A stretch of DNA of 10,034 nucleotides, taken from UHGV virus genome UHGV-0283685. One strand, written 5' to 3'. This DNA comes from a virus. Below, piece by piece: positions 1-10,034 of this stretch (positions are counted from its first letter, which is position 1; each line of letters starts with the position of its first letter). The translations under genes were made by a program, and so were the position numbers. Below the pieces are notes generated by a model. That model ran no database searches and was not told the origin of the DNA. It saw only the letters and a program-made list of their open reading frames with translations.

Positions 1-144
1 GCGATATTCTGCCTGGGTGTGTTCACGCGCAATGAAGAACGTACAACCGGCTATCGCACCGTAAGCCCAGTTTCCGGTAGAAAGGCCAACCAGTATCTGC
101 GCAATAACCGCGCATACTGCATGTGTTATTGGTGTTGTATCCAT
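1..144 (-). CDS. Hypothetical membrane protein, N-terminal 48 codons only (runs off the window)
   Basis: ATG at 142-144 (minus) preceded by AAGGAT about 6 nt upstream, 36 nt downstream of the tailspike stop. Translation MDTTPITHAVCAVIAQILVGLSTGNWAYGAIAGCTFFIAREHTQAEYR is open to the window edge and strongly hydrophobic (likely a TM helix). No family recognised. Confidence 0.4.
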   Translation of the reverse strand, partial: MDTTPITHAVCAVIAQILVGLSTGNWAYGAIAGCTFFIAREHTQAEYR

Positions 145-180
145 ATTTTTATCCTTTTTTAATTTAGCAAATTGATACAA

Positions 181-2832
181 TTACACTCCTGATACTTCAA
201 TAGATAGTTGAATCTTATTTGGCATCTTGTTGCTTAAATATATGGTTGCAAAGTCAAACGAAATATTTAAGTTATTTTCATCACCATCATTATCTGAAAG
301 AACTCCGGTTTTCAATACAACATTTTGCTTATTAATTTCTTTTAAAGGAGAAAAATCAATTGCCTCACCACGATGAATAAGAACACCAACTGCAACTACC
401 CCATGAATATCAAGTATGTCGTGCATATCAAGGCGAACACATGGGACGTATCCACCAACAAGGATACTTGTAGATTTGTTGGCTTCAAGTGTTATTAGAT
501 ATTTTCCGTCTGGTTGAACTATTGTTCCTGCTATTCCATCTGGCGTGTTGAACATACCGCAGTATCTGTATCCTGCTCCAACAGGAACAATTCTGTTACC
601 GCCAAGATCATGGAAATTTCGAACAATTATTGCACCAGGAACTGATGAATAAACCATTACTGCCTCTGTTTGCCCTGATACAGAGTCTGATGTTTCTGGG
701 TTCGCCATGCATAAATTACCACCAAAATAAATATTTTGGATTAGAGGGGTGAGGCCATCATTAACCTCAAAACGTAAAAAGCCCTTGAGAACAGTCCTTG
801 CGGTATTATTCTTAATAACAACAGGAAGTTCTTTATAGTAAGAGTTTCTGTCTGTCTGTGCCAGAGTTGTTTCAATAAAAACAAAAGGTCTGTGATTACG
901 TTGAGTTGCATTCACAGGTTTGTACCTCAAGTTGTATGGCAAAGACATCTCAGTAAAACCATCAATATAATTACAGTTCTGAATCGTGAACCCACCACCA
1001 CTATATCTTACAAAAAAAGGAGCCGGTCCGCTAAATCCCCTGGCGTTCATTCCATCATACACTTCATTTAATCCGCGTATTACACCAGCATAATACAAAT
1101 TGACTGAATTGCCGCCTGTAAAAGTTGTTTCGTATGATGGGCCGTGTCCACCGCAACATGAATTTCTTGTATCGCCATCAGGGAAAAATTTAACTCCATC
1201 ATATGCAGTTCCACCACCCATCATCGTTGGATTTATAATGTTATTATACAGTGATACCATTTGAGTCCCGCTTACATCAAGCCCCCTCCTGCAAGCAAAT
1301 GCTATCATATCCACGACTGTGCAATAGCTGCTATTGTATATTTCAACACCATAACCAGTGCCGTTTGTTAAATCATATGCACGGTTTGAGTATTCAATAT
1401 ATGGCTCTATTATTTTCGTTCTGTAGCATGACTCAAGAAAAATTCCAGTTTCTGAAAAGCCGATTAGTTTTATTCCTTCTATATGCATATCAACAGCGCC
1501 ATCTATCACAAGACCACGGAACCCCAAATCACCAGGAGATGCGTTCTGCGTGACAGGTCTTTCAAAATTGAAATCACCGACAATTCTGCCGTAGCATGGT
1601 TTTCTTTTATATATATTTGCCTTTCTTGTGATTTTAAACACGTCTCCAACAGATGGTTTAAACGGGAATGGTCCCTGAGCATATTCAAATTTTGCTGTTT
1701 TAGTGTCGTAATCCCAATGAGTTATGTATCTTGATATTCCGGCGTTAGCTCCGGTGACACCTGTTACTTTTACCTGATTGTATTGTTTTGTTAATGTTGC
1801 ATCATTACCAAATGAGAATTCACCTCCGGATACAGATGCTGTTACGGTCGTTGAGTAATCATTGCTCGCAGAGTAGAAAAAATAAAATGCACCTGATATC
1901 TCCGCTTTTTTTGTTGCATTATCAAAAGCAGTAACAACATGCATTTCACCTTCACAAGCCTGTCCTCTATTATCTGTCTGAATTAAGCGATTGCCATGAA
2001 TCATAATTATATCGCCTGCATCAACAGAATATGCTGAGTTAATTGATATTGATGTGTCACCAGGATTTATTGTTGAATTATAGTCAATTGGCGTGGCATC
2101 TCCACCTTCGAGTCTTATGAAATAATCATCAATCCAGTTTGGACCAAGAGGCTCTTTTGCGGTTGACTTTAAGACAACCTTGCCATCAGCTACCCAGTCA
2201 TAGTTATAATTATCCCCGCCGCATTTTATGCGGCTAATCAAATACACACCAGAATCCCACTTCAGGCGTTTTCTGTTAGATGCGCAGTAAATGATGGCAT
2301 TTGTTATTGCGTATGTATCGTCAGTAATGCCATCCCCTTTTGCACCAAAATCGCGAACATTTACATGGTCATCAAGTTTATCCTGTAGCGTCCTTTGTGT
2401 TGCTCCGTCTACTTCTTCTGGAAGACCGTACTTATAATTTATAATTGATGGAGTTGAACCATTGTTAAACTTATTCTCTAGTTCTTGTTTAAACTGATCA
2501 GGATCATATTTCAGAATGTTTGGAAAATAGAACTGCTGCGCCCCATAAGCATCGTAAACAGCCATAGAATGGCCTTGCACGGTTACGAATTTGGCAATCT
2601 GTCCGTTATATACCGGATATCCAGCAGCGTTAATGATGATTGGTTGCGAAACAGGAACGTGAGAACCGTCTTCGTTCTCCACATAAACCTGAATCTGGTT
2701 TTCAGGATTTACCGGGTCAGTGTCAATTTTTCCGATATAAATTTTGCCATTGGCTACGGCTTTAAAAGAACGAGCCATAGTGAAGAGTTGCGAAGGCATC
2801 GATACGATCACATTGGCTGTAATGTCTGTCAT
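181..2832 (-). CDS. Tailspike protein: P22 gp9-like N-terminal head-binding domain fused to a long, different receptor-binding region (883 aa)
   Basis: N-terminus [11 protein letters not shown]...[37 protein letters not shown]...[15 protein letters not shown]...LKYDPDQ closely matches the recalled P22 tailspike N-terminal domain; the remaining ~770 aa does not resemble P22 gp9. ATG at 2830-2832 with GGAG 8 nt upstream; stop TAA at 181-183. Confidence 0.9.
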
Positions 2833-2964
2833 TTAATTTGCTCCAGATACAAGGAATCACCGAAGCATGGCTACGGTTGATGTTTGTTGCATACCGAAAT
2901 GGTACGATTGTTGATTTGTACAGTAGGTTTTACGATGCCATTCCACCCATTTGGTGAGGCATTG

Positions 2965-3222
2965 ATGATGTACAGCAAATACGATGAGGCGCAGTTCCAC
3001 TTGAGGCTTACGCACGAGTTGCACGCTAAGATTAAGCAGCGTGCAAAAATGAATAACAGGTCTATCAATTCCGAAATTGTGGCTACGATGGAAGAATCAC
3101 TCTCCAAACCATCACCTGTAAGCGGGTATCGTGATGAAGAAGAGAGGTTGGCCTCATTAATCTCGGAGCGAGTAAAAGAAGTTGCGGCTGATATCCTTAG
3201 AAAAGAAAAAACCCGCGATTAA
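2965..3222 (+). CDS. mnt: Mnt-like ribbon-helix-helix repressor, second paralog (85 aa)
   Basis: FHLRLTHELHAKIKQRAKMNNRSINSEIVATMEESLSKPSPVSGYRDEEERLA aligns along most of its length with recalled P22 Mnt (…NGRSMNSELLQIVQDALSKPSPVTGYRNDAERLA…). Start moved from the track's TTG at 2884 to ATG 2965, which has GGTGAGG 5 nt upstream and gives an N-terminus of Mnt-like length. Stop TAA 3220-3222. Confidence 0.75.
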   Translation: MMYSKYDEAQFHLRLTHELHAKIKQRAKMNNRSINSEIVATMEESLSKPSPVSGYRDEEERLASLISERVKEVAADILRKEKTRD

Positions 3223-3230
3223 GCGGGTTT
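3211..3230. terminator. Bidirectional intrinsic terminator between convergent genes
   Basis: GC stem CCCGC (3212-3216) / GCGGG (3223-3227) with loop GATTAA, flanked by AAAAGAAAAA upstream and TTT downstream. The U-tract is stronger for minus-strand transcripts. Sits between the Mnt-like stop (3222) and the 73-aa ORF stop (3237). Confidence 0.6.
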
Positions 3231-3236
3231 AGTTGG

Positions 3237-3458
3237 TTAGTTATCAAAAAGTCCGTACGTTTCTTCTTCTTCAGGTGTAAGGGGAAGAATCTCTACTCTA
3301 TCTATAGATATCTTTTCAATGTACCCATGAGGTCTACTTAAAATTAAAGCTCTCTCATGCCACAGAACTCCAAGAATGTGATACCTTCCAGCATCGCCTT
3401 TTACCCTGGCTCTTCCTTTGATTCTTGGCGGCATAATGCCATATTTTTTCTTTGCCAT
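3237..3458 (-). CDS. Hypothetical basic protein (73 aa), translationally coupled to the upstream gene
   Basis: ATG at 3456-3458 overlaps the upstream stop as TAATG. N-terminus is Lys/Arg-rich (MAKKKYGIMPPRIKGRARVKG). No own SD within normal spacing. No family recognised. Confidence 0.5.
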   Translation of the reverse strand: MAKKKYGIMPPRIKGRARVKGDAGRYHILGVLWHERALILSRPHGYIEKISIDRVEILPLTPEEEETYGLFDN

Positions 3459-4186
3459 TATGCAACATTACTCCCATGAATCAGGTGTTGTAGTGCTTTA
3501 ACACCTTCCTCATTGTAGCGGAATGCTTCCACCTGTTTGCTGGAATGCGCAGATTTATCCAGGAAGAACTTCCCGTACTGCTCAGTTTTGAGGTTGTTTG
3601 CGTTAGCAATGCGACCAATCTTGTTGGCCGTTACTCCAAGCTGCTCTGCAACCTCCCCTGCTGAGTAGTAATGCTCTTCTATTGCTGGAAGAGGTATTGC
3701 ATTAAAACCAACGATCGGGTTGATTATGCTTGCTGCCGCAGTCTGCTTTGCTTCCGGCGCAAGATTTGGCATCAAATCGAACAGATTGGTAACAGCTTCA
3801 ACCGTCATTTTCAATGTTCGCGCCTGGCGATACTCAACAAGTCCACTAGACGATTTACCGCTTTTAATGTGCGCTTCTTGCATACTTTCAAGTTGGTCTA
3901 CAAGTGAGCGGCGAACAGCTTTAGATTCACGAGCAGCCACTCGAAGGGCTTGCTTAATTGACATAACAACTTTTTCAGAAGTTGTCTTGTTTGATTTTTG
4001 AACTACGAAAATTTCGTAGTGCTCACCTTCAAGTTCATCCTTAATGCGTGCAATAAAGTCGTTATTGCGGACTTCTTTTTCCCCGCACTGTCTACGAGCA
4101 TGATTGACCATCTCTAACAGGTACTGGCTATCAATGGTTTTATCCGTGACAACGGATCCGATGTTTGCTACATTCTTAAAAGTCAT
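3458..4186 (-). CDS. Phage antirepressor/regulatory-like protein with C-terminal KilA-C/ORF6C-type HTH-like segment (243 aa)
   Basis: C-terminal YSAGEVAEQLGVTANKIGRIANANNLKTEQYGKFFLDKS...GVKAL has the look of the DNA-binding C-terminal domain of phage antirepressors. Start set at ATG 4184-4186 (AAGGAA 6 nt upstream) rather than the track's GTG at 4237, which lies inside a terminator hairpin. Confidence 0.65.
   Translation of the reverse strand: MTFKNVANIGSVVTDKTIDSQYLLEMVNHARRQCGEKEVRNNDFIARIKDELEGEHYEIFVVQKSNKTTSEKVVMSIKQALRVAARESKAVRRSLVDQLESMQEAHIKSGKSSSGLVEYRQARTLKMTVEAVTNLFDLMPNLAPEAKQTAAASIINPIVGFNAIPLPAIEEHYYSAGEVAEQLGVTANKIGRIANANNLKTEQYGKFFLDKSAHSSKQVEAFRYNEEGVKALQHLIHGSNVA
4146..4174 (+). 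promoter_or_regulatory. Candidate antisense promoter (sar-like copy 2)
   Basis: -35 GTGACA (4146-4151), 17-bp spacer, extended -10 TGcTACATT (4166-4174), located just inside the start of the minus-strand gene at 4186. The motif TTTGCTACATT nearly matches TTTGCTACAAT at 4885-4895. Confidence 0.35.
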
Positions 4187-4255
4187 TAGGCATTCCTTAT
4201 GTGGTAGTAAGGGTGTGACATAGGCCGCCAGCAGCACACTGGCGGTTTTCTTTTT
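4181..4255 (+). ncRNA. Candidate sar-like antisense RNA 2 (about 75 nt), complementary to the RBS and start codon of the antirepressor-like gene at 3458-4186
   Basis: Predicted start about 7 nt after the -10. Ends at a strong plus-strand intrinsic terminator: stem 4224-4231 / 4239-4245 (7 bp), loop CAGCACA, then TTTTCTTTTT (4246-4255). On the minus strand the same hairpin lacks a U-tract. Confidence 0.35.
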
Positions 4256-4274
4256 GCGCCGTCCGGCGCACCAA

Positions 4275-4901
4275 TCAATGAATCCATTCCTCGCCGCGCA
4301 GTTTTGCCAGCATTGGCTGAGCGTTCTTTACGACAAAATTGTTGGTATCAAGATTCTTCATTTCACGAAGAAGTGATTTCTTGGTTTCTTCTGACATGTA
4401 GCGAGTCTCATATGCAATATCGTAAATCCTTCCTGAAAGCTCAGAACCAATTTGCTTCATTCCTGGGTAGATGTGTTTGCACATTTGTTGACTCTTCTCC
4501 ATCCACAATTGTAAGTAGCAGAGATTAACCAGTTCTTCGTCAGTAAACTGTTTTGCAATCGGTGAGCATTCTGCCTGCCGATCCAAAATATCCAGCACCC
4601 AGCGGCGGAACTCTTTGGCTACCTGAGTGCGAGCAAACATCGCGATTAGGTGGGCACCGCGTAGTGAGAAAACACGCACTTTTTTACGATAATTTCCTGA
4701 GGTACTCACTTCGAGTACCTGAGTCATTCCGGCGCTAAACTCATCGCTATACTTGTTATAAATCATTGTTACTGCACGACTATTTGCGTATTTAAGTGCA
4801 GATGCAATATTAGATGATGTAAACCAAACACCATGCATATCACGGGTGGGCACCAATTCAACTCCGTGGAAGTTGTAATCTGATTTTGCTACAATATTCA
4901 T
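4275..4901 (-). CDS. ant: Antirepressor with Bro-N domain (Ant-like, 208 aa)
   Basis: YNFHGVELVPTRDMHGVWFTSSNIASALKYANSRA...LIAMFARTQVAKEFRRWVLDIL fits the Bro-N fold pattern. It sits directly downstream of arc, as ant does in P22. Start set at ATG 4899-4901 (AAGGAA 6 nt upstream) rather than the track's 4985, which overlaps arc. Confidence 0.75.
   Translation of the reverse strand: MNIVAKSDYNFHGVELVPTRDMHGVWFTSSNIASALKYANSRAVTMIYNKYSDEFSAGMTQVLEVSTSGNYRKKVRVFSLRGAHLIAMFARTQVAKEFRRWVLDILDRQAECSPIAKQFTDEELVNLCYLQLWMEKSQQMCKHIYPGMKQIGSELSGRIYDIAYETRYMSEETKKSLLREMKNLDTNNFVVKNAQPMLAKLRGEEWIH
4887..4895 (+). promoter_or_regulatory. Candidate Psar-like antisense promoter (extended -10)
   Basis: TGcTACAAT (4887-4895) on the plus strand, immediately next to the ant start codon (4899-4901). 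No convincing -35. Confidence 0.35.
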
Positions 4902-4976
4902 GTTAGTTTCCTTGCATACGGTTACTGACATAGAGGCCCGGTTTGTGTTCACGCACTGCCGGGCTTCACTATTTTT
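4902..4976 (+). ncRNA. sar: Candidate Sar-like antisense RNA (about 75 nt), complementary to the ant RBS and the arc-ant intercistronic region
   Basis: Position and orientation match what is known for P22 sar (a small antisense RNA of about 68-69 nt from the arc-ant intercistronic region). Plus-strand hairpin GGCCCGG (4935-4941) / CCGGGC (4959-4964) followed by TTCACTATTTTT (4965-4976). Confidence 0.4.
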
Positions 4977-5148
4977 ACTGGGCATTAGCTCTTTCCTCTC
5001 TCAGGCTTTTAGCCAGTCGCTGCACAATCGCAGAGTTGATAGAAATTCCATCCATTTCAGCAACACGTCTAATCTCCTCCTTCATTCGCGCTGGCAAACG
5101 AAGCTGGAAACTTTGACTTTTACGACCTGTGTAAAGCACATCTTTCAT
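4975..5148 (-). CDS. arc: Arc-like ribbon-helix-helix repressor (57 aa)
   Basis: SFQLRLPARMKEEIRRVAEMDGISINSAIVQRLAKSLREE aligns with recalled P22 Arc (QFNLRWPREVLDLVRKVAEENGRSVNSEIYQRVMESFKKE). Start set at ATG 5146-5148 (GGGAGAA about 6 nt upstream) rather than the track's GTG at 5161-5163. Stop TAA 4975-4977. Confidence 0.8.
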   Translation of the reverse strand: MKDVLYTGRKSQSFQLRLPARMKEEIRRVAEMDGISINSAIVQRLAKSLREERANAQ

Positions 5149-5169
5149 AAGTAATTCTCCCACAATGAT

Positions 5170-5223
5170 ACCAACTTGGTTCTAGAACCAATTTAACACC
5201 ATTTATTTTGATGTCAAGTTGGT
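5170..5223. promoter_or_regulatory. Operator cluster: 16-bp perfect palindrome TTGGTTCTAGAACCAA plus extra TTGGT/ACCAA half-sites
   Basis: Perfect palindrome at 5176-5191. Overlapping palindrome ACCAAcTTGGT at 5170-5180. A further caagTTGGT at 5215-5223 overlaps the -35. All lie between the divergent arc (-) and Mnt-like (+) starts. Confidence 0.55.
5190..5217 (-). promoter_or_regulatory. Candidate Pant-like promoter for arc-ant
   Basis: On the minus strand: perfect -35 TTGACA (plus 5212-5217), 16-bp spacer, -10 TAAATT (plus 5190-5195). Predicted start falls inside the 16-bp palindrome. Confidence 0.5.
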
Positions 5224-5259
5224 GCTATTGTTTAGCGAACATCTTTACGTTGAGGTCAT

Positions 5260-5580
5260 ATGAGCAAGTTCCCTAGTCATGAAATGGATAGGTTCAATAT
5301 CAGGCTTCCTGCAGGAATGCGGGATGCTATAGCTGAACGAGCCAAACGTAACGGCAGATCAATGAACTCAGAGATTGTTCAGATACTGGAAGATGCCTTG
5401 AATGCAGAAAATACACTCGGGGAAATAGCAGATAAAATCAACAGCGTCTCGGTTCCGCTAAATGTTGATGCGCTAGTTCAACTTCAAGCCCAGGTTATCG
5501 CCATGCAAAAAGAAATACAGGAAAAGTTCAGAGAGCAGAACGAAAAGTTGAGAGAACTGCTAAACAAAAAAACCACCTGA
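5260..5580 (+). CDS. mnt: Mnt-like ribbon-helix-helix repressor with C-terminal coiled-coil, divergent from arc (106 aa)
   Basis: RFNIRLPAGMRDAIAERAKRNGRSMNSEIVQILEDAL closely matches the recalled P22 Mnt RHH region (RAEANGRSMNSELLQIVQDAL), and the C-terminus ends KKTT as Mnt does. The C-terminal half is heptad-like (LVQLQAQVIAMQKEIQEKFREQNEKLRELL). ATG 5260 with GAGG 4 nt upstream. Occupies the mnt position opposite arc. Confidence 0.8.
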   Translation: MSKFPSHEMDRFNIRLPAGMRDAIAERAKRNGRSMNSEIVQILEDALNAENTLGEIADKINSVSVPLNVDALVQLQAQVIAMQKEIQEKFREQNEKLRELLNKKTT

Positions 5581-5606
5581 CGGTGGGTTAATTTTTGCCT
5601 TTTTTG
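5572..5606 (+). terminator. Candidate intrinsic terminator after the Mnt-like gene
   Basis: Stem CCACC (5573-5577) / GGTGG (5582-5586), loop TGAC, followed by GTTAATTTTTGCCTTTTTT. The stem is short (5 bp), so this is only moderate. Confidence 0.45.
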
Positions 5607-5678
5607 GACCATATTGACTACTCATAAAATGAGATCAATATTTAATCGCCCAATAACGGGTGCATGTTGAGGTATATC

Positions 5679-5858
5679 ATGGCGAAAAAACCAGGTGAAA
5701 ACACAGGAAAAAACGGCGGAATATACCAAGAAGTTGGCCCGCGCGGAGGTAAGAAAGACAATTTTGCCACCGTCAAGGACAACGAAAGGCTTCCGCCAAC
5801 AACAAAGCCAGGTCATGGCTGGGTATTAGATAAGCGAACTCCAGACAGCAAAAAGTAA
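5679..5858 (+). CDS. Small hypothetical protein (59 aa), possibly YjzC-like
   Basis: ATG 5679 with GAGG 6 nt upstream (the track's 5664 start lacks an SD). MAKKPGENTGKNGGIYQEVGPRGGKKDNFATVKDNERLPPTTKPGHGWVLDKRTPDSKK is Gly/Lys/Pro-rich. The pattern KPGE..G.NGGIYQEVG...G...LPPT...G..W resembles the small YjzC-like proteins as I remember them. Candidate promoter upstream: TTGACT at 5614-5619. Confidence 0.55.
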   Translation: MAKKPGENTGKNGGIYQEVGPRGGKKDNFATVKDNERLPPTTKPGHGWVLDKRTPDSKK

Positions 5859-5864
5859 TAATCA

Positions 5865-5886
5865 AGCCGGGTCACTCCGGCTTTTT
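5865..5886. terminator. Bidirectional intrinsic terminator between convergent genes
   Basis: Stem GCCGG (5866-5870) / CCGGC (5877-5881), loop GTCACT, then TTTTT (5882-5886). An A-rich run on the other side (5851-5865) serves the minus strand. Overlaps the stop (5872-5874) of the 121-aa gene. Confidence 0.5.
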
Positions 5887-6237
5887 GATATGTCGCTCGC
5901 AGAACTCAACAAGCCTGCTCATTAAGTAGCAGTAAGTCTCGTTGGCTCTTCCTGGTTCAACATCAACGCCGACCCTTGAGCAGATATCGAATGCCATGTG
6001 AGCGCACTCATGGGCAATAGTAGATAGTTTACCATTGAACACACCTATCACATGCAAAACACCATTCTCGCTGCTCATTGTATGAGACGCTCCGTTGGCA
6101 TCCGAGTCCTGCACGTCCACGCCAAGTTTTTGATGCAGGCGTTGCCATTCTGGAAAGTCTCTGCAAAACACAATTGTACCGCTCTCAAAGAGCGGAACGA
6201 GCATTTTTGGTACGTTTCCAATGTTAACTTTTTTCAT
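5872..6237 (-). CDS. Hypothetical protein with HExxH zincin-like motif (121 aa), possibly a minimal metallopeptidase
   Basis: Uninterrupted 122-codon frame with ordinary coding composition. ATG 6235-6237 with AGGA 4 nt upstream. Contains STIAHECAHMAFDI, with several Glu residues 14-30 aa downstream that could supply a third zinc ligand. No family assignment possible without a search. Confidence 0.6.
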   Translation of the reverse strand: MKKVNIGNVPKMLVPLFESGTIVFCRDFPEWQRLHQKLGVDVQDSDANGASHTMSSENGVLHVIGVFNGKLSTIAHECAHMAFDICSRVGVDVEPGRANETYCYLMSRLVEFCERHIKKPE

Positions 6238-6267
6238 GGTATCCTGCTCAAAACTAAGGAGGTTGGT

Positions 6268-6495
6268 GTGAAGCGATGGTTCCTCATAATTACTGTTTTC
6301 GCGATCATTTACACTATTTTCCCTGCATTAAAAGCACCAATGCAAATAATTTCACTAGCAATAATTTCGATTAGTGCTTTCATTGCAGTAGCCGTACTTG
6401 TGTTTAAGGTTTTAAAGTTTTTAGTTTGGCTATCAAAAGATGATGGATGCAAAGTTCATCAAGAAAAAGAAGGCAAAATAACCAAAGTTGACTAA
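6268..6495 (+). CDS. Small hydrophobic protein with two predicted TM helices (75 aa), GTG start
   Basis: Strong SD AAGGAGG (6256-6262) 5 nt before GTG 6268. Two hydrophobic segments (WFLIITVFAIIYTIF and MQIISLAIISISAFIAVAVLVFKVLKFLVWL) then a charged tail. AT-rich. Its stop overlaps the gp16-like stop on the other strand by 3 nt. The track's N-terminal extension to 6052 is antisense to the 121-aa gene and was rejected. Confidence 0.5.
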   Translation: MKRWFLIITVFAIIYTIFPALKAPMQIISLAIISISAFIAVAVLVFKVLKFLVWLSKDDGCKVHQEKEGKITKVD

Positions 6496-8615
6496 CTGTC
6501 ACTAGCGAGCCATGTAATAATCCCCGTGCGGGCAATGGTTTTTGCTTCATCTGTTGATAAGGTTTTCTCCCATCTCTTAAATGCCCCAGATTGCATCAGT
6601 TTCCTTTCTATTGCGCGTCTCACTTCTGCTCTGTCTACTGGTGCGTTTTGCAGGCGAAATAGCATTGATTTAAACTCAGGAGAAGATAGCAGAGCATCAG
6701 CAGCCTTTATCCTGCTTGTTTTCCCTGACATCAATGCAGACGTTATCACCCCTGTTGCACCTACACCAGGGAGACCAGATAAGCTTGTAATACCTTCCGC
6801 CGCAGCAGCTTTTGAGGCTATTCCATAAATTTTTGCGAGACTACCCTTTTCTTTCAGAAAGTTATTAACTTGCTGATCCACAAGACTACTAGCATACTGC
6901 TTACCAGTATTGAGTCTATTCATAGCCTTAGCTGCTTGATAAATCGTATCAAGGCGCTTTGATGCATCTGTGCCAATAGCATCACGGAGAGCCTTCATAT
7001 TGGCCCCATTGCGTGACATTCCGTTATACCATTTTACAAATCCATCAACTCCTAATTGCTGACCAGGTGATTTGGCATAGCTGGTAAATGCTTTATTCAT
7101 TGAGGTGAGCGCAACTTCCTGCCGCATATCCTTTGGAATCGACTTCATTAATTGCCTAAAGTCGCCACCGTTTCCTTTTGCCATATTAACAACAGCACTT
7201 TCAACTTTTGGAATTGCTGATTGCTGAAGTTTTCTACCCAAGACGGTTACAGCATCATCTTCAATGGATTTTCGTTTTTTTACCAACTCCTTACCAAGCG
7301 TCCATAATTCCCCTGCGCCATATTTTTCTGCGACAGCCTGTTGGTCATCTGTTATGGCTGCATATAACTTTTTAAGAACACCTGTTTCTTCATCCTTGAA
7401 TGGACCAGAGCCTTTGCCAATAGCTTGTCCAACCTGCTTTCTAGCGAGATCTAAACGCCCATACGTTGGCAAGGTGTTTGGATCAAGTCGGTTCAATGTC
7501 CGCTTCATTATTGGAGATAATTCATCAATTCCACCTATGTCATCAGCAAAATCCTCTAAAAAATTCAATGTATTAGTTGCCTCAATCCGGTCTCTTACAG
7601 GAACCTTTTCGGCAATTTTGTTGTAGATGTTATCTGACTGATTTTGTAATGATGAAATGGTTTTATCAAAATTATCTGCAAGCCTGTCAGAAACCAGTTG
7701 CTTATCAAGGCTTCCCCCAAATGAAGTTATCATTTCATCAGCTTTTCTTCCTAATTCAGTAATAAAACGCTTATGCGCCTCACTAATCTCTGTTCCAGGG
7801 AGACTTGCCACTGCATTATCAAGAGCCCTGACAGCAGGATTATTAGAGATCATGCCTGGAGTGGCATAATTTTCCAGTTCTAGCTCACGAATAGCATTTA
7901 TCGCGTTAAAATCAGGATTAACTTCATCGGCGAAATCTTGAATAGCTCGTTGCCCGCCGATAAATTTATTGTCCATTGCGCCAGCAGCTTTCTTTAACGT
8001 TGCTTTAGATGATTTACTACCCATCCCTACGGATGAGCGATAAATATCTCCGGCACTATTTTTAATTTTTCCTGCAATCTTCCCAAGCGCTGGACCAACA
8101 ATCTCGGCTACAGGGCCAGCCACAGCGCCAATAGCAGCGCCGGAAGCAACATCGCTATTTGTTCCATTGGCTACAATAGCCCCTTCTCCAGCACCAAGCC
8201 CTGCGGCGGCAGCCAGCCTTGCCGCCCCTTTCGGAACCTGAGAAATAATCCCACCACCACTAACAAATGGCGCTGCTTGTCCAACGAACTCACCAACATC
8301 TTGTGCGGTTGATGGTTTTGCCGCTAACTTCTGCTGTAGAGACTGAATTGCGGCTTGCTCTTCTGGTGTCATGTCCTGAAACAGGCCAACACCTTTACCA
8401 ACATCCATCAATCCACTGAGAACGCCATACATAAAACGGTCGAAGCCGTTAGCATTATTAACAACATTTTCCTGTCTGGAATTTTCCTCTAGTGAAACCA
8501 AAGGAGATTGCTGCTGTTCTGGTTGTGCATCAAGCACAAAGCCATCAGGAAGCTGTGAGTTATCAGGCTGATTATCGAGAACAAATCCTTCGGGTAAACC
8601 TACATCGGTTGCCAT
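6492..8615 (-). CDS. DNA-ejection (injection) protein, P22 gp16-like (707 aa)
   Basis: Last of three consecutive late-operon genes just before the immI-like region, in the same order as P22 genes 7-20-16. ATG 8613-8615 with AGGAA 6 nt upstream, overlapping the upstream gene's stop by 16 nt. Gly/Ala-rich segments and an N-terminal tandem repeat. Assignment rests on synteny and size, not a verified alignment. Confidence 0.7.
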
Positions 8616-9943
8616 TGTCCGTTCCTATAAATGAGTTTCTGACCAGTTTTAGGGTTCGTTGCCGTCGCGCCTTCTGATATCCCACTTGGCGCAGCTTTTG
8701 TCTGCCCATTACCACCTTGTGGTGTAGGCTGCGCTGGGACATCGTCAAATAGCTTGGCCTTCCTTCTCCCTAAGCTTTTTTTCAGCCCTTGAGGAATAGT
8801 ATCTCCATACGTATCCAGATATTCGTCTACCTGCTGGTTAAACTGCTGCCCCATAGCGTTGGCGTTAATTTTGGCTGCGTTAACAATGTTATCCCTCGCT
8901 TCCTGTGACAAGCCATTCCCTGCATTAAGCTGGTCTACATATCCTTTTATCTGCCCCCATATGCCATCAGAGCGCATGACCTGAACCTGTTCACCTTCGC
9001 GAACAACTGACTGAGGGTCGAGAGACTTCATGTAATTAAAGATAATCCCAAGTTGGGCAGCGCCAGTATTTACCTTGCTAAGGGCTTGCAGAGAGTTTGC
9101 CGCCGCTCTGACAGAGTTATAATTTTTGCCAAAATTGGTAATATCAGAATTTAATCCCTTAATTAAGTCTGCTGACGGCTTACCTTTTTGCCCCAGCTCC
9201 ATTAGCTTCAATCCCATCTCATCTGAGTGCATTTGTGCCCGCTGAGCCCTGTCTAGTTGAGCATTTTGGATATTTGCCCATCCTCTCGCGTTCTCCATGT
9301 CAGCCTGACGGATGCTTTCATCCAATCGCCCTTTCTCAAGTTGGCGACCAACCATCTTATCCTGATAATCCAGCATTTTATCCGGACCAACAGCCCCTAG
9401 CGTCATAGTAGTCAGCATGTGTGATAGCTGCTCTGGATTCTGAATACCTGTCTGAATCATCCAGTCAGCATTAGCACCAACGCGATTTAACCTGTCCTTG
9501 TTGTCAGTAATGAATTTACTGTAGGCTTCCGGCCCCTGAGAAAGAGCGACGTTAGCCCTCATGGCTAAATCGCCCATATCGTTGCGTTGCTGATCATTAA
9601 GACCGGAAAACGCCTGTTGTGCCTGTGCAACAAACGCTGGATTTTCCTGGGCAAACTTAAATAGTCCCGATGGATCACCAGAAGCCCATGCATCAGCGTG
9701 AACCTTATTGAACGCACTAATAGCTTTCTGTTGCTGTTCCTGATTGTAAATATCAGCAACTCCAGCCAGACCACGTAACGCGGTCAGACCAACGTTATTT
9801 GCACCTGAGCGAGCCAGTTCATTGTTTTCGCGGATCAGACCAAGCGTTGCGTTAATGTCGCTTGCCTTTGGCGCATTCTCATTTTGCGCACCAATGCCAG
9901 CCAGAAAACCACCAGAATTAATACCCTGTTGCCACGTAGCCAT
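8600..9943 (-). CDS. DNA-ejection protein, P22 gp20-like (447 aa)
   Basis: Middle gene of the three-gene set (P22 gp20 is about 471 aa). Start set at ATG 9941-9943, 4 nt after the upstream gene's TAA, rather than the track's GTG at 9955, which lies inside the upstream gene. Gln/Asn/Ala-rich. Assignment by synteny and size. Confidence 0.7.
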
Positions 9944-9947
9944 TGAT

Positions 9948-10034
9948 TTACCCACGTCCAGTTAAAGTGTAAGCCAGCGCCTTATCCATTAATCCCCGAG
10001 CAATTTCGTGGATCGTTGGCGCAACTCCTACCTC
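9948..10034 (-). CDS. C-terminal fragment of the upstream late gene (gp7-like position), 28 codons plus stop
   Basis: Minus-strand frame is open from the window edge to TAA at 9948-9950 (…[28 protein letters not shown]), immediately followed by the gp20-like start. Identity inferred from position only. Confidence 0.4.

Follow-up and report, generated by a model that had tools for sequence, protein, structure and literature searches.

The immI region of phage P22 is the textbook model both for repressor-operator recognition, by Arc and Mnt, and for antisense control, by the sar RNA. The stretch that separates genes 16 and 9 was defined as the ant moron by Villafane et al. 2008 (PMC2629481), who distinguished ten ant-moron types in sixteen genomes, found that ST64T, ST104 and one Paratyphi prophage retain only mnt, and suggested that the ant moron, and perhaps Mnt and Arc as well, may influence read-through into the tailspike gene. 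An mnt gene standing divergently beside gene 9 is likewise an arrangement that has already been drawn (PMC2629481; PMC8022706). Here we analyze the interval between the ant and tailspike genes (positions 2833-4274) of UHGV-0283685, a 10,034-nucleotide stretch of viral DNA that we refer to as the window. By its homologies and gene content, this interval represents one more form, compound and mosaic, of the ant moron, whose hypervariability is known, rather than a new kind of system; in it, a second antirepressor-like gene (ant2), a 73-codon open reading frame (orf73) and an additional mnt gene (mnt2) lie next to a complete P22-like immI unit. We find that mnt2 encodes the closer homologue of P22 Mnt, that it adjoins a predicted operator and promoter of its own at the tailspike boundary, and that it appears to control neither of the two antirepressor genes.

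Homology and annotation place the window, which spans the gene 20-16 to gene 9 end of the prophage, at the distal late-operon end of a P22-like (Lederbergvirus-type) element, reversed relative to the P22 map, and positions 2494-9953 share 99.76% identity with the prophage that is integrated at argW in E. coli 55989. The moron region lies between the homologues of genes 16 and 9, within the late operon, and contains an ant gene whose product has BRO-N and P22AR_C domains, two Arc-family genes placed as in P22, a Pant promoter scoring 10/12 and a predicted antisense unit, sar1, with the fold of P22 sar. Its likeness to P22 immI thus covers the genomic slot, the divergence of mnt from arc-ant, the co-orientation of ant with gene 9, the Arc, Mnt and Ant (BRO/P22AR_C) homologues, the sar fold, the terminator before gene 9 and the geometry of operator and Pmnt. 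It differs from P22 immI in carrying two Mnt-family genes instead of one; in the unrelated second antirepressor-like gene with its sar-like unit, plus orf73, after ant; in a full-length Mnt homologue that stands apart from Pant, beside gene 9 and with a decayed partner promoter; in a new operator sequence and recognition strand (QFHLR); and in the absence of sieA. An earlier sequence-only reading of this DNA had noted about 1.4 kb between ant and the tailspike relative to P22, holding a second antirepressor-like gene, a 73-residue open reading frame coupled to it through TAATG and a second Mnt-family gene; open reading frame and family assignments bear out each of these, with all elements at or within a few bases of where they had been drawn.

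The gene content recurs in other phages and prophages. Phage JEP4 carries tailspike-mnt2-orf73-ant2-ant at 93% identity, and the interval is found at a coverage of at least 80% in 55 of 5,426 complete E. coli genomes. With Mnt2 as the query, 80 IMG/VR loci were retrieved, in every informative one of which the Mnt2-type gene adjoins and diverges from a tailspike head-binding domain; what follows on the side away from the tailspike differs between loci (gp16, ant, ant2 with or without orf73, or something else), with orf73-ant2-ant following mnt2 in ~35 loci and ant2-ant without orf73 in ~15. A diverged lineage, in which ant2 is 68% identical and the BRO-type ant, the arc and the distal mnt are different ones, keeps the order 9-mnt-ant2-ant-arc-mnt, and an mnt gene divergent beside the tailspike is also found in VSe13, Sf101, ST64T, SE1 and Gally. 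The possibility raised by the sequence-only reading, that close relatives hold the same genes with characterized functions, is thus borne out for the gene content (JEP4, E. coli, IMG/VR) but not for characterized functions. As a separate observation, the Klebsiella Lederbergvirus phiKp_30 harbors at 3956-4953 an mnt2-ant2 copy that is 98-99% identical, lacks orf73 and sits in a different genomic arrangement; its mnt2 is a remnant from which the 5' end, including the recognition strand, is gone.

The product of mnt2 is annotated in 55989 as an Arc-family protein and matches the Pfam Arc family (PF03869, 4e-15) over residues 8-53. Its similarity to P22 Mnt extends well beyond this domain, as residues 7-79 align with the P22 Mnt structure 1mnt (E-value 3e-16), the identity is 46.6% over 73 amino acids with the C-terminal oligomerization part included, and the alignment continues through the SKPSPVsGYRdeeERLA linker and the C-terminal helix to residue 79. 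Mnt1 holds the position of P22 mnt but differs in its C-terminal half, and aligns in the ribbon-helix-helix domain only, both with P22 Mnt (54% identity over 37 amino acids) and with Mnt2 (38% over 45 amino acids). Judged by these alignments Mnt2, which the sequence-only reading had taken for an added paralog, is the true full-length homologue of P22 Mnt, closer to it than Mnt1, and would by homology form a tetramer. With the P22 Mnt family it shares, on alignment, the N-terminal ribbon-helix-helix domain and the C-terminal helical domain after the KPSPV..GYR linker, together with a palindrome, the predicted operator, just upstream of the -35 element of its promoter; what it does not share is a strong divergent Pant driving arc-ant, since the promoter that faces it reads ATGGCA-17-CAAATC and has neither arc nor ant behind it. 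About 150 loci from E. coli, Salmonella, Shigella, Buttiauxella and Serratia carry mnt2 in intact form, and its ratio of nonsynonymous to synonymous substitution rates (dN/dS), 0.155 against ST64T mnt, indicates purifying selection. Mnt proteins at this site are themselves mosaic: in two IMG/VR loci (L073 and L077) an SE1-type N-terminal half (QFNLR) is joined to a window-type C-terminal half (..LISEQVKEVAADILRKEKTRD), Sf101 Mnt combines a window-type N-terminal half with a P22-type C-terminal half, and the joint lies near the conserved KPSPVSGYRDE linker.

The spacer between the tailspike and mnt2 genes matches, by alignment, the P22 Omnt/Pmnt layout minus arc-ant. The ~48 bp nearest the tailspike (2833-2880) also occur in the P22 ant-9 spacer, including the 'boundary sequence' GCATGGCTACGG, and the remaining 85 bp align position for position with the annotated Omnt/Pmnt/Pant region of P22. 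The P22 spacer carries two copies of the boundary sequence; a second copy was considered as an insertion scar, but the window has only one, at 2865-2879. A 15-bp palindrome, which in relatives takes the form GTACC-N5-GGTAC, is situated 59 bp upstream of the codon at which the tailspike starts. Across 55 unique sequences of this class, the TACC and GGTA arms, the central AAA, ATTG in the -35 region and TACGATGC in the -10 region are invariant, and two symmetric positions inside the palindrome and the tailspike-side bases vary. At this one position, three combinations of Mnt and operator are found: HFNFR (DDPHFNFRMP, in P22) with AGGTCCACnGTGGACCT; QFNLR (DDPQFNLRLP, in ST64T, SE1, Gally and IMG/VR loci L073, L076, L077 and L079) with AGACCACnGTGGTCT; and QFHLR (DEAQFHLRLT, in the window) with rTACCnAAAyGGTAy. 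Sf101 and VSe13 belong to the operator class of the window, and ST64T, L, SE1 and Gally to the AGACCACnGTGGTCT class. The palindrome thus switches with the recognition strand of Mnt, which identifies 2891-2905, with good confidence, as the predicted operator of Mnt2, and column conservation together with the low dN/dS argues that the operator-mnt2 pair is maintained. The exact site is present only once in the window and only once in the whole 48-kb prophage region of 55989, and looser matches occur at chance frequency.

The spacer had earlier been singled out as a possible repressor site on account of its short repeats, and a predicted operator is indeed present in it. The repeats themselves fared unevenly: both copies of TACGAT exist, the one at 2931-2936 being the invariant -10 element of mnt2 and the one at 2903-2908 overlapping the right arm of the operator, but TGTACA (2917-2922) is unconserved in relatives, and the real repeat, the 15-bp palindrome, had gone unlisted. 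The same organization characterizes the 'mnt-only' morons of ST64T, L, ST104, SE1, Sf101, VSe13 and Gally, which share the ~120-135-bp spacer with the boundary sequence, the palindromic operator and Pmnt. In those phages the antirepressor genes are absent or reduced to fragments, whereas the window has a complete mnt1-arc-sar-ant set plus ant2 and orf73 on the gene-16 side of the orphan mnt.

A second promoter in the spacer would face the tailspike, and it has decayed. At the position where P22 has Pant (TTGACA-17-TATATT), the window has hexamers far from consensus, and the other tailspike-linked variants have -35 elements TCGGCA, CAGGCA or TAAGCA with -10 elements TAAATC, TATATC, TAACTC or TGCATC; across tailspike-linked loci, the -10 element never has its final T and the first two -35 bases vary (AT, TC, CA or TA). 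A promoter scan of 2600-5189 detected no minus-strand promoter. The sister operator class AGACCACnGTGGTCTnATTG, represented by 77 IMG/VR loci, provides the counterpart, as the hexamers are degenerate in the 62 loci beside a tailspike and an intact TTGACA-17-CATTAT is present in the 7 beside arc. The mnt-gene 9 arrangement is best read, on this comparison, as an immI control region after the loss of arc and ant, whose Pant side then decayed, and the comparison serves as a demonstration, at the level of aligned sequences, that orphan mnt units keep their operator and promoter while Pant decays.

Natural module swaps show Mnt2 to be unpaired with Pant or with ant2. In L073 the other Mnt class stands at the tailspike and the arc-mnt1 control region is identical to that of the window, and, conversely, eight loci with a 100%-identical Mnt2 have a wholly different arc-mnt control region, with ATGACATCA...TGATGTCAT palindromes and a different distal Mnt. 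The 5' region of ant2 is unchanged whichever Mnt class accompanies it, and Mnt2 occurs without ant2 in about 30 of the 80 IMG/VR loci. The distribution of the operator agrees: among the matches listed, it is flanked by the tailspike and mnt2 in 72 of the 76 real IMG/VR loci, the other four being truncated at contig ends, and none of the 76 has it beside arc or ant. In GTDB, with one genome per species, about 100 of the 106 operator matches are chance occurrences in unrelated phyla; the four real loci (in E. coli, Buttiauxella, Serratia and a fourth genome) share the tailspike-mnt2 context, and in none of these four is the operator beside arc or ant. Mnt2 consequently appears to control neither antirepressor.

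The antirepressor genes would instead answer to the distal immI unit. The Pant control region has an 11-bp palindrome (ACCAACTTGGT, 5170-5180) and a 12-bp one (GGTTCTAGAACC, 5178-5189), and the promoter is flanked by 17-nt inverted copies at 5162-5178 and 5215-5231; these are presumably the operators of Mnt1 and Arc. Opposite the start of ant, the sar1 sequence parallels P22 Psar/sar and folds, like P22 sar, into a 5' hairpin followed by a terminator (-33.3 kcal/mol, z-score -6.4). No promoter is detectable by scan between ant and ant2, so that ant2 and orf73 may be read from Pant as distal cistrons.

Ant2 belongs to PHROG 1726 'anti-repressor' (1e-100), and neither it nor orf73 matched a family in Pfam, NCBIfam or PDB sequence searches; RefSeq/PGAP annotates Ant2 as 'hypothetical'. 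It has 1,922 homologues across Enterobacterales, none of the 120 listed carrying a precomputed Pfam domain; those in phages encoding Shiga toxin 2a (Stx2a) are 63-67% identical over the full length, and relatives are annotated Roi or KilA. Its domains are a P1-Ant-like N-terminal domain and a MerR/excisionase-like winged-helix C-terminal domain: residues 15-107 are 59% identical to residues 112-206 of P1 Ant1 (E-value 2e-32), a segment that sits at the start of the shorter P1 Ant2 product, and the remainder is unrelated. From homology and context, it is a reasonable inference that Ant2 is an antirepressor. To P1 immI and its P7 counterpart (Ant1/Ant2), the window is similar in this ~95-residue segment and in the antisense-RNA control of translation, which is a prediction for the window; it differs in that P1 has C4 RNA and icd coupling upstream, whereas the window has a predicted sar-like countertranscript and a small open reading frame coupled downstream, in that P1 Ant targets C1, whereas the target here would be of the lambdoid C2 type, and in the unrelated C-terminal halves. 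Among the PHROG 1726 proteins of Stx2a-converting and other lambdoid phages, those of Stx phages are encoded in the early-left region, close to further antirepressor genes and with neither mnt nor orf73, and no experimentally characterized member of the family was found in the literature searched. A published study of the Phi24B antirepressor was considered and set aside as uninformative for Ant2, as the Phi24B Ant is of the P22AR_C type.

A candidate second antisense unit, sar2, appears to accompany ant2. Its promoter lies on the plus strand just inside the 5' end of ant2, with a terminator about 45 nt downstream, and the predicted RNA of ~75 nt would overlap both the start codon and the Shine-Dalgarno sequence of ant2. 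The -10 context TTGCTACAnT is common to sar2, P22 Psar and sar1; a fold with two hairpins, one 5' and one in the terminator, is predicted for the RNA of each of three diverged lineages (z-scores -2.8, -4.3 and -4.0), and in the L077 and L054 lineages the promoter and terminator are kept where the overlapping N-terminal codons of Ant2 have diverged. The sar2 hairpin has no U-tract in the ant-to-ant2 direction. No match at gathering score was found for sar2 among 4,227 Rfam families.

The frame of orf73 is linked to ant2 by a start codon that overlaps the ant2 stop (CATTA on the plus strand at 3456-3460, TAATG on the minus strand). The protein matches PHROG 4977 (1e-53), a family of unknown function, and is limited to 8 protein clusters, which come from E. 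coli or Salmonella. It adjoins an mnt2-type gene in both diverged loci that were looked up and in every locus of the 80-locus set that has orf73, its presence being polymorphic within this set. Residues 20-73 are invariant, and the first ~19 codons carry indels that shift and then restore the frame, a combination which suggests that the core is translated; the dN/dS is 0.48-0.82, and the AlphaFold2 (AF2) model is poor (predicted local distance difference test, pLDDT, 62), built on a shallow alignment. One variant, P0004, starts with a peptide of the window's alternative minus-strand frame 3355-3477 (MHNGKEKIWHYAAKNQRKSQ) and rejoins the orf73 frame at VKGDAGRY, from which the N-terminal third would be unconstrained at the protein level.

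Downstream of orf73, the convergent mnt2 gene shares a hairpin with it, which the sequence-only reading had called a bidirectional terminator. The sharing holds, but the element is asymmetric: the terminator scan calls it on the minus strand only, where a good U-tract follows in the ant2-orf73 direction, and the plus-strand tail UUUAGUUGG failed the scan. The fold itself is predicted for both strands (-12.4 kcal/mol, z-score -4.0 on the minus strand; -13.8 kcal/mol, z-score -3.0 on the plus strand).

Together these observations lead us to propose, as a probable though far from certain account, that the interval is part of a compound ant moron built from two known kinds of module, in which Mnt2 is an orphan and probably autoregulated repressor, and the antirepressors are under Mnt1, Arc and antisense RNAs. 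The interval would be one half of a compound immI region, assembled by mosaic recombination. In one unit, ant2 and orf73 would be the distal cistrons of a Pant transcription unit, arc-ant-ant2-orf73, whose promoter (5217-5190) Mnt1 would keep repressed in the lysogen and Arc would limit after derepression, with sar1 and sar2 dampening the translation of ant and ant2, respectively. Transcripts from Pant would end at the hairpin at 3209-3230 and stop short of gene 9. Late transcription would pass this hairpin, presumably aided by the Q-family antiterminator of the prophage, and read through the moron into the tailspike gene. The other unit, mnt2 with its operator and promoter, would be an 'mnt-only' immI remnant of the ST64T/L/SE1/Sf101 type, in which the arc and ant genes that had separated the Pant/Pmnt control region from gene 9 were lost and the promoter on the Pant side decayed afterward. 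Mnt2, with a new DNA specificity conferred by the recognition strand QFHLR, would bind 2891-2905 immediately upstream of its own -35 element and be transcribed from its own conserved promoter; as the operator would be centered about 45 bp upstream of its own start, the simplest role is autoregulation, and the only cognate site in the prophage would be the one near the tailspike start.

Several points weigh against this proposal, and some of them lend substance to its alternatives. The regulatory elements are all consensus or comparative predictions, and Pmnt2 (TTGTTG/TACGAT) is weak relative to consensus, falling under the 9/12 threshold of our simple promoter scan. The operator and the recognition-strand codons are only ~70 bp apart and there are at most three independent classes, so that their joint switching may reflect co-inheritance in one recombination block and is no proof of selection. 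With the facing promoter dead, autoregulation of a gene without another known target does not fully account for the strong conservation of the operator; support for the coding status of orf73 is modest; and Ant2 has a winged-helix domain, its antirepressor activity being putative. Furthermore, a near-operator, ATACCAACTTGGTTC (5168-5182), agrees with the operator at 9 of 10 arm positions and is located, like P22 Omnt, between the -10 element of Pant and arc. This site, together with the joint travel of mnt2 and ant2 into phiKp_30, would fit a second antirepressor circuit, as the sequence-only reading had envisaged, with Mnt2 repressing ant2-orf73 or cross-repressing Pant, and in this particular phage such cross-repression of Pant is possible. 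As a general rule, however, a Pant-repressor role for Mnt2 through 5168-5182 was rejected, because the natural swaps tie the region to Mnt1 and Arc: it stays constant when the Mnt class at the tailspike changes and is wholly replaced where Mnt2 is 100% identical. Also against the second circuit, the 5' region of ant2 is the same with either class, many loci have Mnt2 without ant2, and the phiKp_30 mnt2 lacks its recognition strand. Matches at the near-operator stringency also number 7 where 6.96 are expected, and we regard the second circuit as very improbable.

A further point comes from Gally, a prophage of LF82, which has a sister-class (ST64T-class) orphan mnt beside its tailspike. In macrophages Gally mnt is up 40-fold and the tailspike about 20-fold, an adjoining co-oriented moron gene is high and the injection genes are at background (PMC9928086), which shows that local, moron-derived transcription can enter gene 9 in a related arrangement. 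These data would fit a role for Mnt2 at 2891-2905 in governing the tailspike, either by repressing a weak or conditional facing promoter or as a roadblock to moron-derived, possibly late, transcripts. So would the position of this Mnt type and its operator, which invariably adjoin the start of the tailspike in about 150 loci, the stronger conservation of the operator than of the surrounding spacer, and the suggested effect of the moron, Mnt or Arc on gene 9 read-through (PMC2629481). The idea, already raised by the sequence-only reading, is nevertheless weakened by the facing promoter, which is degenerate in every orphan arrangement, with an unconserved -35 element, and intact where arc follows the sister-class operator; an ancestral arc-ant deletion would account for the adjacency just as well, the Pant unit is already separated from gene 9 by a terminator, and the roadblock presupposes a bound Mnt tetramer that halts an elongating or antiterminated polymerase. 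We therefore think tailspike control unlikely. Mnt2 could also act in trans as an immunity factor, repressing Pant of superinfecting relatives that carry this operator and so sparing the resident prophage from induction by their antirepressor. P22 Mnt acts in this way on superinfecting P22, mnt2 is under purifying selection, and the sister class AGACCACnGTGGTCT offers potential targets in the 7 of 77 IMG/VR loci with the operator at an intact Pant before arc; yet the window's own class, rTACCnAAAyGGTAy, has no such arc- or ant-linked operator in the IMG/VR or GTDB loci counted above, which makes this role quite unlikely. That mnt2 and its operator are simply a functionless, decaying immI remnant was left open for phage L (PMC8022706), and would agree with the decayed partner promoter, the truncated phiKp_30 copy and the Gally delta-mnt lysogen, which has been constructed and has no reported phenotype, its host surviving in macrophages like wild type (PMC9928086). 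The latter result is consistent with an orphan mnt that is dispensable for prophage silencing, the paper reporting survival rather than induction. We consider decay highly improbable all the same, given an intact mnt2 in about 150 loci across five genera, a dN/dS of 0.155, operator arms and promoter hexamers that are invariant where neighboring bases vary, and the transcription and 40-fold induction of Gally mnt (PMC9928086). As for the other genes, Ant2 might be a Roi/KilA-type DNA-binding protein with another lytic role and orf73 spurious or decaying, in keeping with the missing Pfam/NCBIfam family, the PGAP label 'hypothetical', the Roi or KilA annotation of relatives and the homology to P1 Ant over only about 95 residues, and, for orf73, with its absence from many otherwise identical loci, the tolerated N-terminal frameshifts and a dN/dS of 0.5-0.8. 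This combination is possible, though we doubt it: Ant2 occupies an antirepressor-operon position behind ant, has a conserved sar-type unit over its start, the type of control known for P22 ant, and is 59% identical to a segment of an experimentally defined P1 antirepressor, while orf73 has an invariant core preceded by frame-restoring indels.

A more far-reaching reading, which we rate as unlikely, is that the tailspike-side Mnt-operator pair is a selected, free-standing device that outlives its antirepressor and either gates gene 9 transcription, by blocking moron-derived or late transcripts, or serves as a portable determinant of trans-immunity against the antirepressor promoters of relatives. 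Such a device would exist in at least two specificity classes beside gene 9, and in this prophage it would act next to a second, complete immI in which antisense RNAs control both antirepressors. Current understanding of immI is not overturned by these findings; the interval is what the high genetic flux known for this site would ordinarily yield. New, as predictions from comparative analysis, are the operator assignment and third Mnt class, the decay of Pant next to a retained orphan mnt, the evidence against a Mnt2-antirepressor circuit and the candidate sar2. The third Mnt specificity class found in nature, together with its predicted operator, is useful for studies of ribbon-helix-helix recognition, and the constraint on mnt-only morons despite their decayed partner promoter sharpens the question, posed by phage L, of what an orphan repressor does. 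The candidate second sar-type RNA lies over a large antirepressor-like family that has no Pfam model, is mostly annotated 'hypothetical' and is present in Stx2a phages, and an operon with two antirepressors of different build could let this phage act on more repressors and hence induce more kinds of co-resident prophage.

Table 1. Coordinates of genes and of predicted regulatory elements in the window, in order of position.
Feature	Position	Strand	Description
Tailspike gene	181-2832	-	Pfam Head_binding N-domain (2e-66), P22-type, then a different receptor-binding part; last late-operon gene
Tailspike-mnt2 spacer	2833-2964		132 bp
Tailspike-leader hairpin	2860-2876	- (mRNA sense)	CCGAAGC-ATG-GCTACGG on + strand; inside P22 'boundary sequence'
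Predicted Mnt2 operator	2891-2905	none	15-bp palindrome ATACCGAAATGGTAC, ATACC-GAAAT-GGTAC; at P22 Omnt position; abuts Pmnt2
Predicted mnt2 promoter (Pmnt2)	2908-2936	+	TTGTTG (2908-2913), 17 nt, TACGAT (2931-2936); aligns position for position with P22 Pmnt
Decayed Pant homologue	2913-2941	-	ATGGCA, 17 nt, CAAATC; would face tailspike; positional alignment with P22 Pant
mnt2	2965-3222	+	85 aa counted from 2965; PGAP start 2968
Shared terminator hairpin	3209-3230		mnt2 stop codon in loop
orf73	3237-3458	-	73 codons; TAATG-coupled to ant2
ant2	3458-4186	-	242 aa
Predicted sar2	4146-4257	+	Promoter GTGACA-17-TACATT with TGn (4146-4174), 9/12; RNA ~4181-4257; terminator 4222-4248 plus U-tract
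ant2-ant spacer	4187-4274		
ant	4275-4901	-	Pfam BRO-N and P22AR_C; PHROG 245; context, outside the interval in question
Predicted sar1 (sar homologue for ant)	4887-4976	+	Extended -10 TGCTACAAT (4887-4895); RNA ~4902-4976
arc homologue	4975-5148	-	Pfam Arc (9e-12); PGAP annotation; first gene of Pant unit
Pant region	5162-5231	-	TTGACA (5217-5212), 16 nt, TAAATT (5195-5190); sigma-70 scan 10/12
mnt1	5260-5580	+	Pfam Arc (2e-20); PHROG 1287; divergent from arc-ant
Gene order beyond mnt1			P22 orf59a homologue, orf121 (5872-6237, -), gene 16 and gene 20 homologues
gp16 homologue	6492-8615		Flanks the moron region together with the tailspike gene (181-2832)

Searches over the wider region returned little else. 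A PADLOC search identified no defense system, giving a weak helix-turn-helix-level match for Ant2 (0.002) and nothing for mnt2, orf73, ant, orf59 or orf121, and an Rfam search of 2600-6400 at a permissive E-value reached no gathering score in any of the 4,227 families; a SymR-like match over sar1 (E-value 0.95) was treated as chance. In the tailspike leader, the predicted hairpin has 88% of cells paired across 17 variants, mostly through one-sided changes and including AGC/GCU to AUC/GAU and G-C to G-U replacements; in the covariation test pairing is kept, at a level not significant against shuffles (61/500).

At the far end of the tailspike gene, window positions 1-2493, which encode its receptor-binding part, are unlike the 55989 prophage, and identity begins at 2494, right after the head-binding domain, as is typical of a tailspike module swap or mosaic joint. 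The window tailspike has 883 amino acids with a pectate-lyase-like signature, and its 55989 counterpart has 659. On the gene-16 side of the moron, no family or function was found for orf121, which is matched at 100% amino acid identity by a part of the P22 RefSeq genome that carries no annotation (NC_002371, 4039-4404), between orf59a and the sieA promoter, and whose SE1 homologue is annotated 'similar to HK620 unknown protein'. Finally, RefSeq annotates at 6268-6495 on the plus strand, at roughly the P22 sieA position, a hydrophobic open reading frame of 75 amino acids, overlapping the gene 16 homologue at the latter's end.

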